Notes: generated by a model not told the origin, from the letters alone. 4,062 bases of DNA from a virus (IMGVR_UViG_2671180852_000012), one strand, 5' to 3'; shown: positions 2,890 to 3,056, counted from the stretch's first letter. Made by a program: numbers and translations.

Positions 2890-2969
2890 ATACATATCTG
2901 GATTATCACCTGTTACGGTAAAAAGTGATTGCTTACTGTTTTTGTGAATGGCATTGCAGCAGCCGGATA

Positions 2970-3056
2970 ATGTCAGTGCTGGCTGACGGTGTGCTGGTGG
3001 CGGGTGTGGTGGTTGCTGCTTTCCCGTTGCTGAAAAAGAAAACGCCAGACTGTTAG
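2970..3056 (+). CDS. Candidate small hydrophobic peptide (28 aa, MSVLADGVLVAGVVVAAFPLLKKKTPDC)
   Basis: A hydrophobic stretch followed by KKK, the general shape of small membrane peptides or type I toxins. Frame is open back to a GTG at 2925 (43-aa alternative). Ribosome-binding site is weak, so it may be chance. Confidence 0.2.
   Translation: MSVLADGVLVAGVVVAAFPLLKKKTPDC

Follow-up and report, generated by a model that had tools for sequence, protein, structure and literature searches.

TerB-domain proteins that are tethered to the membrane are known from the ter operons, where TerB is found with TerC, and from DjlA, in which a TerB-like domain follows a transmembrane helix. A TerB-like gene is also the first of the three tci genes of phage P1, where tciA is followed by tciB and tciC in an accessory region adjoining tRNA genes. 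In P1, CRISPRi identified tciB as non-essential for lytic growth and the tci genes as dispensable there (PMC10695390). In a full-text literature search, DUF3927 (the Pfam name of the TciB family) and tciB were mentioned at annotation level only, and the peptide sequence discussed below had no match.

STnc100 is a multicopy prophage sRNA of which strain EDL933 carries eleven copies, all transcribed and one confirmed on Northern blots (PMC5331693). It is structurally related to the Hfq-dependent PasD sRNAs (bioRxiv 10.64898/2026.05.13.724894, 2026 preprint), the PasD1 and PasD2 RNAs of EPEC prophages among them. In Stx2 phages, one STnc100 copy is found 75 nt 3′ of stx2B (PMC12370729).

Type I toxins such as Hok, Ldr, TisB, Ibs, ShoB, ZorO and DinQ form a third group to be considered here, being short peptides that combine a single hydrophobic helix with a charged end. 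We analyzed a 4,062-nt stretch of viral DNA, called the window in the following, in which the original prediction had singled out a short ORF as a possible type I toxin or membrane peptide. Our comparison points elsewhere: the ORF is probably a decayed 3′ fragment of tciB, left behind as a relic devoid of function.

An accessory region of a lambdoid prophage

The window represents the late-regulatory accessory region of a lambdoid prophage from E. coli, chromosomes of which match it over its whole length with ∼98% identity. Its features are collected in Table 1.

Table 1. Features of the window, in order of position
Feature	Position	Strand	Evidence or remark
Q antiterminator gene, 3′ part	51-452		Pfam Antiterm
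First tRNA pair	555-630 and 731-807		
N6/N4 DNA methylase gene	1074-2123		
Second copy of the tRNA block	2173-2425		99% identical to the first
ORF117	2536-2889	+	PHROG 2873
Relic of tciA 3′ end and tciB translation start	2897-2924	+	Alignment, shuffle test
43-codon ORF (3′ fragment of tciB)	2925-3056	+	Pfam PF13064
Allele-specific 33 nt, codons 1-11 (MIAYCFCEWHC)	2925-2957	+	Shuffle test
Block homologous to tciB codons ∼26-57	2958-3056	+	Alignment; BLAST junction
STnc100 sRNA gene	3122-3311	+	Rfam RF02076
Intrinsic terminator hairpin, then TTTATATT	3281-3302	+	9 pairs, 7 of them G-C; inside the Rfam match
IraM-like gene	3337-3672	minus	NCBIfam NF007393, 162 bits (cut-off 121)
DUF1737/esterase gene	start near 3920		

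Several of these features deserve a brief comment. Right after the Q gene, a strong terminator (CAACCCGCCGCCGAGCGGGTTTTTTATTG) occupies positions ∼490-518 on the plus strand. The surrounding sequence, 412-518 (+), gave a sub-threshold Rfam match to Trp_leader (25.7 bits versus 41); judged by its position, it looks like the short PR′-tR′ leader transcript targeted by Q. In Stx phages, the PR′-tR′ leader transcript is itself an sRNA (StxS).

The tRNA at 555-630 has the anticodon CAT and was typed as tRNA-Met in our analysis and as tRNA-Ile in the RefSeq annotation; its neighbor at 731-807 is a tRNA-Arg with anticodon TCT. This tRNA(CAT)-tRNA-Arg(TCT) block is the duplicated unit within a direct repeat (516-815 and 2134-2433; at least 300 nt, 99% identity) that flanks the DNA methylase gene, and homologous recombination between the repeats could loop the methylase out. 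The best-matching genomes (e.g., locus L236) have a single tRNA pair, a small hypothetical ORF replacing the first one.

ORF117, which directly precedes the ORF of interest, matches PHROG 2873 with 233.9 bits. The alignment begins at residue 10, which makes ATG 2563 its likely start. A homologue of the same length (P0116; 56% identity) is encoded downstream of an AraC-type regulator gene. The NCBI pipeline does not call ORF117 in matching genomes (L001, L236), and we regard it as probably a real phage gene missed by annotation. The idea that ORF117 routinely travels with the tciB relic was rejected by the locus of a divergent homologue (L237), in which an unrelated 45-codon ORF follows the ORF117 homologue and homology to the window returns at the stop codon.

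On the far side, the IraM-like gene encodes an anti-adaptor of 111 aa in the prophage accessory slot, convergent with STnc100; in related loci, the gene shows a Pfam PmrD match (L003, 3473-3808). A phage-borne RssB anti-adaptor of this kind could stabilize RpoS in lysogens.

The ORF belongs to the TciB family

The ORF itself was found as predicted: it runs from GTG 2925 to TAG 3054-3056 and encodes a 43-aa peptide (MIAYCFCEWHCSSRIMSVLADGVLVAGVVVAAFPLLKKKTPDC), or a 28-aa form from the internal ATG 2970, with a hydrophobic run (Kyte-Doolittle peak of 2.5 in a 15-residue window) followed by KKK. The original prediction had allowed that such an ORF might have arisen by chance. This concern can be set aside, since the peptide matches Pfam PF13064 (DUF3927) with 92.7 bits (E 1.3e-26), far beyond the cut-off of 25 bits. 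It also matches PHROG 1470, annotated as TciB-like, with an E value of 1.5e-11. The ORF belongs to DUF3927/PHROG 1470, a family of small hydrophobic phage proteins, and the proposal of a membrane peptide was right at the family level only. RefSeq lists it as a "DUF3927 family protein" in ∼1,200 complete E. coli genomes, with NCBI start choices alternating inconsistently between the 28-aa and the 43-aa form; NCBIfam has no model that matches the peptide.

The match to the family is partial. Only positions 23-51 of the 54 in the PHROG 1470 profile align to the window peptide (residues 12-40), leaving residues 1-11 unaligned, while positions 1-51 align to a 57-aa relative. In hydropathy plots, the window peptide has a single peak versus two in intact members.

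Note that a tblastn search of the phage collection with the 43-aa peptide returned one record only and is uninformative on distribution; many relatives came up in DNA and profile searches, so that the hydrophobic run was very probably masked by the low-complexity filter.

Intact tciB is the translationally coupled partner of a TerB gene

Homologues of the peptide fall into three length classes of 28, 43, and 54 to 57 aa. The long form reads MTVKMRLAVVALLLFLVVMVVMVDFSSRIMSVLADGVLVAGVVVVAFPLLKKKASGD and has two hydrophobic peaks with a polar dip at DFSSR between them; P1 TciB (MVIKARLILALVFLVLSVLVDFTSTILSVLSDGALVAVAVTLVWPILKTASKDQ) aligns over its full length. A profile search of 1.84 billion representatives returned 108 clusters at 50% identity, most of them of 50 to 60 aa, covering profile positions 1-50 and sharing the motif DF(S/T)S..(M/L)S.LADG. 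Intact TciB proteins have 51 to 57 aa, with two hydrophobic segments flanking DF(S/T)S..S.LADG, an architecture that the window peptide lacks. Compared with P1 TciB, of which the second half (...DFTSTILSVLSDGALVAVAVTLVWPILK...) is homologous to the C-terminal 33 residues of the window peptide (SSRIMSVLADG...FPLLKKK), the window copy is a fragment that has neither the DF motif nor the first hydrophobic segment and that lacks both the coupled start and the TerB-domain partner gene.

The gene arrangement is equally constant. In 16/16 loci with 54- or 57-aa forms, the stop codon of a 143-aa TerB gene overlaps the tciB start by 4 nt (TerB gene at 2573-3004, tciB at 3001-3165/3174), and in P1, too, the tciB start overlaps or abuts the stop of the upstream TerB gene; the window has no such junction. 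The GTG start of intact tciB overlaps the tciA stop codon and is preceded by a GGAG 8 nt upstream. The annotation of phage JLK-2012 names the pair tciA/tciB; these names were first used for P1, in which tciA-tciB-tciC have the same arrangement.

Farther afield, a TciB-like ORF immediately 3′ of TerB is clear in CharmingMan, pJN2-26 and the N4-like phage FSL SP-058, and a weaker one directly follows TerB in the jumbo phage ChrisDB. One Vibrio phage has no small membrane protein ORF after TerB, and two Pseudomonas phages have a different one. Of the phage lineages sampled, 7/8 encode a small membrane protein together with their TerB-domain protein. The Pseudomonas phage protein, encoded just after TerB (at 1135) in phage AF (L239), where it is unannotated, and at 1143-1346 in phage Ebordelon (L243), has one hydrophobic helix followed by the conserved C..YG(W/Y)QTERET(K/R)Y..FVGCMV. 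It may represent another type of membrane partner for TerB, unrelated to TciB.

Divergent intact tciB genes show pN/pS ratios of 0.3 to 0.5 which, combined with the constant TerB pairing, argue that intact tciB is a real, selected gene and an obligate TerB neighbor. At least 80% of tciA-tciB is present in 737/5,426 complete E. coli genomes and some piece of it in 2,363. Lambdoid prophages carry the pair as an accessory cassette, with the Q antiterminator/tRNA block on one side and the STnc100, esterase and lysis genes on the other, a slot which is held by stx in Shiga toxin phages.

In the intact system, TciB would anchor TciA, a soluble TerB-domain protein, at the inner membrane. Such a role as membrane partner is suggested by the translational coupling, by the recurrence, in unrelated phages, of TerB genes next to genes for small membrane proteins, and by what is generally known of membrane TerB proteins. 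Physiologically, the pair may act in stress or in resistance to colicins or phages. The likeness to TerB/TerC and DjlA lies in a TerB-domain protein encoded with a small membrane protein; here, in contrast, the membrane element is a separate protein of 51 to 57 aa, and the window has no TerB gene. AlphaFold2, run with a shallow alignment, modeled the 57-aa relative as a single continuous helix (residues 3-55; pLDDT 85.6) and did not reproduce a two-pass hairpin; a two-pass topology of intact TciB is thus suggested by hydropathy and the polar DFSSR break only. Apparent TerB-TciB fusions (P0138, 176 aa; P0167; P0168) turned out to be chimeras or frameshift read-throughs with unrelated N-termini and therefore provide no evidence for a TerB-TciB interaction.

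Anatomy of the truncation

In a MAFFT alignment of the window with intact loci, homology begins at ∼2897. Upstream of this position, nothing is homologous to the tciA 3′ end, and the place of the missing TerB gene is taken by ORF117. Positions 2897-2924 (TCTGGATTATCACCTGTTACGGTAAAAA) are the counterpart of TCTGGAGAATCA(T/C)CTGTGACGGTAAAAA in intact loci, with 24/28 identical positions in a local alignment and 0/2000 shuffles scoring as well. The intact counterpart, TCTGGAGAATCACCTGTGACGGTAAAAA, comprises the last tciA codons, the GGAG Shine-Dalgarno sequence, and a GTG start codon overlapping the TGA stop. In the window, both signals are mutated: GGAG has become GGAT, and the start/stop overlap GTGA has become GTTA (GTG>GTT). 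The old tciB frame reads VTVKSDCLLFL* and ends at a stop codon at 2945-2947 after 11 codons.

The next 33 nt, 2925-2957, sit where intact genes have 52 to 61 nt encoding the first hydrophobic segment, a length difference that is not a multiple of three. They bear no significant similarity to that segment (score 13 against a shuffle mean of 12.4, with 782/2000 shuffles as high). The MAFFT alignment had suggested a decay of the segment via three small deletions; in view of the shuffle test, we describe the change as a replacement rather than as decay in place. From 2958 onward (SSRIMSVLADG...FPLLKKK...), the window is nearly identical to intact genes through the second hydrophobic segment and the basic tail. 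Taken together, this anatomy describes an ORF in which a GTG and 10 unrelated codons lead in frame into the final 33 codons of tciB, with the DF signature of the family and the first hydrophobic segment missing.

The weak ribosome-binding site noted in the original prediction was borne out, with anti-Shine-Dalgarno duplex energies of −3.0 kcal/mol before GTG 2925 and −3.3 kcal/mol before ATG 2970, as compared to −6.4 kcal/mol for intact tciB genes.

Truncated tciB copies are common in prophages

We scanned IMG/VR with 21 nt of the tciB 3′ end as an anchor and obtained 120 loci which, together with those fetched earlier, gave a set of 140. Full-length tciB with TerB was present in ∼25 of them. 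The junction seen in the window (reference position 675 by BLAST) recurs in 82/140 loci, and at least six other 5′ truncation junctions were found, at reference positions 622, 658, 708, 716/720, 726/727 and 729. Several truncated copies have no start codon at all (e.g., ...GQIQVVVAFPLLKKKTPDC), and several truncations are joined, via short microhomologies, to tRNA-Arg, the inter-tRNA spacer or the post-tRNA terminator region. With at least seven independent cases among prophages, 5′ truncation of tciB is a recurrent event in these mosaic regions.

The junctions at 708 (L023, L029, L035 and others), 729 (L049, L063, L097) and 622 (L026, L039 and others) illustrate the range: the fusions lie in the post-tRNA-Arg terminator region, in the inter-tRNA spacer, or in mid tRNA-Arg, at G/T-rich microhomologies of 8 to 12 nt (e.g., GGTTGTTG). 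Based on these junctions, the second half of tciB looks like a hotspot of illegitimate recombination. This half is rich in GTGGTGGTT, and in-frame repeat expansions and contractions are frequent within it (P0005, P0006, P0047, P0088, P0090).

Variation argues for a relic rather than a micropeptide

Alternatively, the tciB remnant could have been remodeled into a gene whose truncated 28- or 43-aa product is still translated and functions independently, as a single-pass membrane micropeptide. We consider this unlikely, even though the allele is widespread: the 241 nt around the ORF are found in 1,402/5,426 complete E. coli genomes and are nearly full-length in 1,184. The SxLADG...FPLLKKK part is intact, the 43-codon frame is open in ∼76/82 sampled window-type loci, their sole indel in the ORF is a 3-nt deletion that keeps the frame, and the NCBI pipeline calls a CDS, if not always the same one.

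The original prediction had proposed frame conservation as a check, and the comparison of the window with the 81 other window-type loci gave seven synonymous and eight non-synonymous or disruptive variable sites. The synonymous share of 7/15, against a neutral expectation of ∼25%, amounts to a mild excess (one-sided binomial p ∼0.06, in a count that ignores kinship among the loci), compatible with weak purifying selection or with variation brought in from intact copies by gene conversion. The disruptive alleles include loss of the start codon (GTG>GTT) in three loci and Glu8>stop in two, and the replacements are Met16>Ile, Leu19>Pro, Gly22>Cys, Ser12>Cys and Ala31>Val/Thr. Two of these, Leu19>Pro and Gly22>Cys, occur in lineages found on hundreds of contigs, and the protein database contains P0054 (Leu>Pro) and P0066 (Gly>Cys), two widespread forms annotated from the ATG, as well as the frameshifted alleles P0020 and P0022. 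Frame-disrupting changes, which had been named in advance as grounds for refutation, thus exist in near-identical loci as start-loss, nonsense and frameshift alleles, and go part of the way toward it.

Further observations weigh against a functional micropeptide. Neither start has a usable Shine-Dalgarno sequence, translational coupling is lost, and the peptide is without the family signature and the first hydrophobic segment. With 12.1 variable sites per 100 nt, as compared to 12.3 in the upstream intergenic sequence, 13.6 in ORF117 and 7.4 in STnc100, the window-type ORF is no better conserved than its flanks. Finally, other prophages keep even shorter, start-less pieces of tciB, which indicates that retention of the 3′ end needs no coding function. 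A tciB relic accounts for these features most readily in our view, although, going by sequence, leaderless or poorly Shine-Dalgarno-led translation of the fragment may occur.

STnc100 downstream of the relic

The original prediction had also guessed that a regulatory RNA might follow the ORF, and here it was correct: 3122-3311 matches the STnc100 model of Rfam (RF02076) in full (positions 1-206), including the terminator, with 132.4 bits in cmscan (E 4.4e-30; gathering score, 47 bits). The RNA is predicted to fold with an MFE of −74.6 kcal/mol (z score, −2.26). The terminator, expected at 3281-3317, indeed consists of a hairpin plus a T-run within this interval; it ends STnc100 and is the first terminator downstream of the ORF. 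Of the claim that ∼225 nt before the terminator are free of ORFs, the length stands (224 nt), whereas several ORFs of 37 to 42 codons lie within it. RefSeq places a partial pseudogene ("hypothetical protein") opposite STnc100 (L236, 4561-4686; L001, 3762-3905), corresponding to window positions ∼3138-3266 on the minus strand and coinciding with a 42-codon minus-strand ORF; most likely, this pseudogene is an annotation artifact over the sRNA gene.

The window shares with other members of the STnc100/PasD family a position upstream of sialate esterase and lysis genes, the alternative being one downstream of stx2. This kinship concerns the neighbor of the ORF and not the ORF itself. Might the tciB 3′ end then be kept for its RNA, as a precursor or promoter of STnc100, the latter being a 3′ UTR-type sRNA of the tciAB transcript (here, of a transcript of ORF117 and the relic)? 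The spacing is suggestive, as the STnc100 core lies 134 ± 1 nt from the tciB 3′ end in 135/140 loci whatever the upstream junction, and the STnc100 terminator is the first one the transcript would meet. In addition, a promoter-like TTGTGA-18-GATAAT is found inside the ORF at 2942-2971. Its −35 element, however, is part of the 33 allele-specific nt, and intact genes lack it. Moreover, most copies obtained with STnc100 itself as the anchor are devoid of tciB sequence, their homology to the window beginning at 3081-3093 in 58 copies and at 3133 in 18; in Stx phages, where STnc100 follows stx2, it begins at ∼3078. The sRNA unit accordingly starts downstream of the ORF, and a conserved candidate promoter, TTGTCT-17-(TG)TAAAAG at 3115-3143, which was seen by eye and not called by the scan tool, could serve it. 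We therefore regard retention at the RNA level as improbable and the tciB relic as a neighbor, not a required part, of STnc100.

A further reading, in which the TciB fragment, reduced to one helix by the loss of TciA and of its first hydrophobic segment, would still be translated (from GTG 2925 or ATG 2970), would act on membranes as a micropeptide kept in roughly one-fifth of E. coli genomes, and would possibly share a transcript with STnc100 as a dual-function mRNA/sRNA locus, strikes us as very unlikely.

A type I toxin is not supported

The original prediction of a type I toxin would make the ORF a membrane toxin restrained by an antisense or nearby sRNA, with STnc100 as the candidate regulator. 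By size and hydrophobicity (<60 aa, one hydrophobic helix), both the 28- and the 43-aa form resemble such toxins, down to the basic tail, and a structured, expressed sRNA lies 65 nt downstream. The resemblance ends there. STnc100 is on the same strand as the ORF and hence not antisense to it; complementarity between the ORF and the downstream sequence, STnc100 included, is limited to a 10-nt inverted repeat arm at 90%. A scan of 2890-3330 for conventional promoters and terminators gave none on the minus strand, and in Rfam the window matched none of the antitoxin RNA families at E ≤ 1. With neither an antisense RNA nor an antisense promoter nor a known antitoxin found, the toxin reading is not supported. 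In contrast to type I toxin genes, neither an antisense nor an overlapping antitoxin RNA was found for the window ORF, which also lacks a promoter or 5′ UTR of its own and matches none of the families of type I toxins and antitoxins. As for a translation start, which in such toxins is often regulated by mRNA folding, the window ORF pairs weakly with the anti-Shine-Dalgarno sequence, and the start codon is gone in 3/81 related loci. PADLOC gave no defense-system match for the peptide, intact TciB or ORF117 (TerB was sub-threshold only). Since, in addition, most STnc100 copies occur without an upstream piece of tciB (e.g., downstream of stx2) and tciB, where intact, invariably sits second in a TerB-coupled operon and is no solitary toxin gene, a type I toxin-antitoxin pair is highly improbable.

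Discussion

Our analysis favors the reading of the ORF as a decayed tciB fragment, and a plausible course of events can be reconstructed from the alignments. In the lineage of the window, recombination would have placed a different accessory ORF, that of PHROG 2873, where tciA once was. What remains of tciB is 28 nt around the old start, with Shine-Dalgarno sequence and start codon both mutated, then 33 nt of unrelated sequence that replace the first hydrophobic segment and do not keep the frame of the old start, and then the final 33 codons, intact. An accidental in-frame GTG at 2925 and the internal ATG at 2970 would mimic a gene for 43 or 28 aa.

Lacking the coupled start from which intact tciB is translated, the window copy most likely does nothing as a protein: the fragment would be poorly translated or not at all, and would have no toxin function. 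It may be transcribed passively, either as part of the Q-dependent late transcript or by read-through from ORF117 to the STnc100 terminator. That it persists could be due to the recent date of the event, the wide spread of the allele, and the conserved STnc100 alongside.

Both elements, DUF3927/TciB and STnc100, are already catalogued, and what the window displays is ordinary prophage mosaicism, no new toxin. The added value lies in recognizing that the annotated "protein" and thousands of relatives of 28 to 43 aa are 5′-truncated relics. The "DUF3927 family proteins" of this size that RefSeq lists for E. coli and Shigella should be taken neither as intact small membrane proteins nor as toxin candidates. 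The intact tciA-tciB pair, by contrast, is widespread, being present in P1-like, N4-like and jumbo phages as well, and shares its late-operon accessory slot with Shiga toxin. It is this pair, rather than the relic, that is worth experiment.
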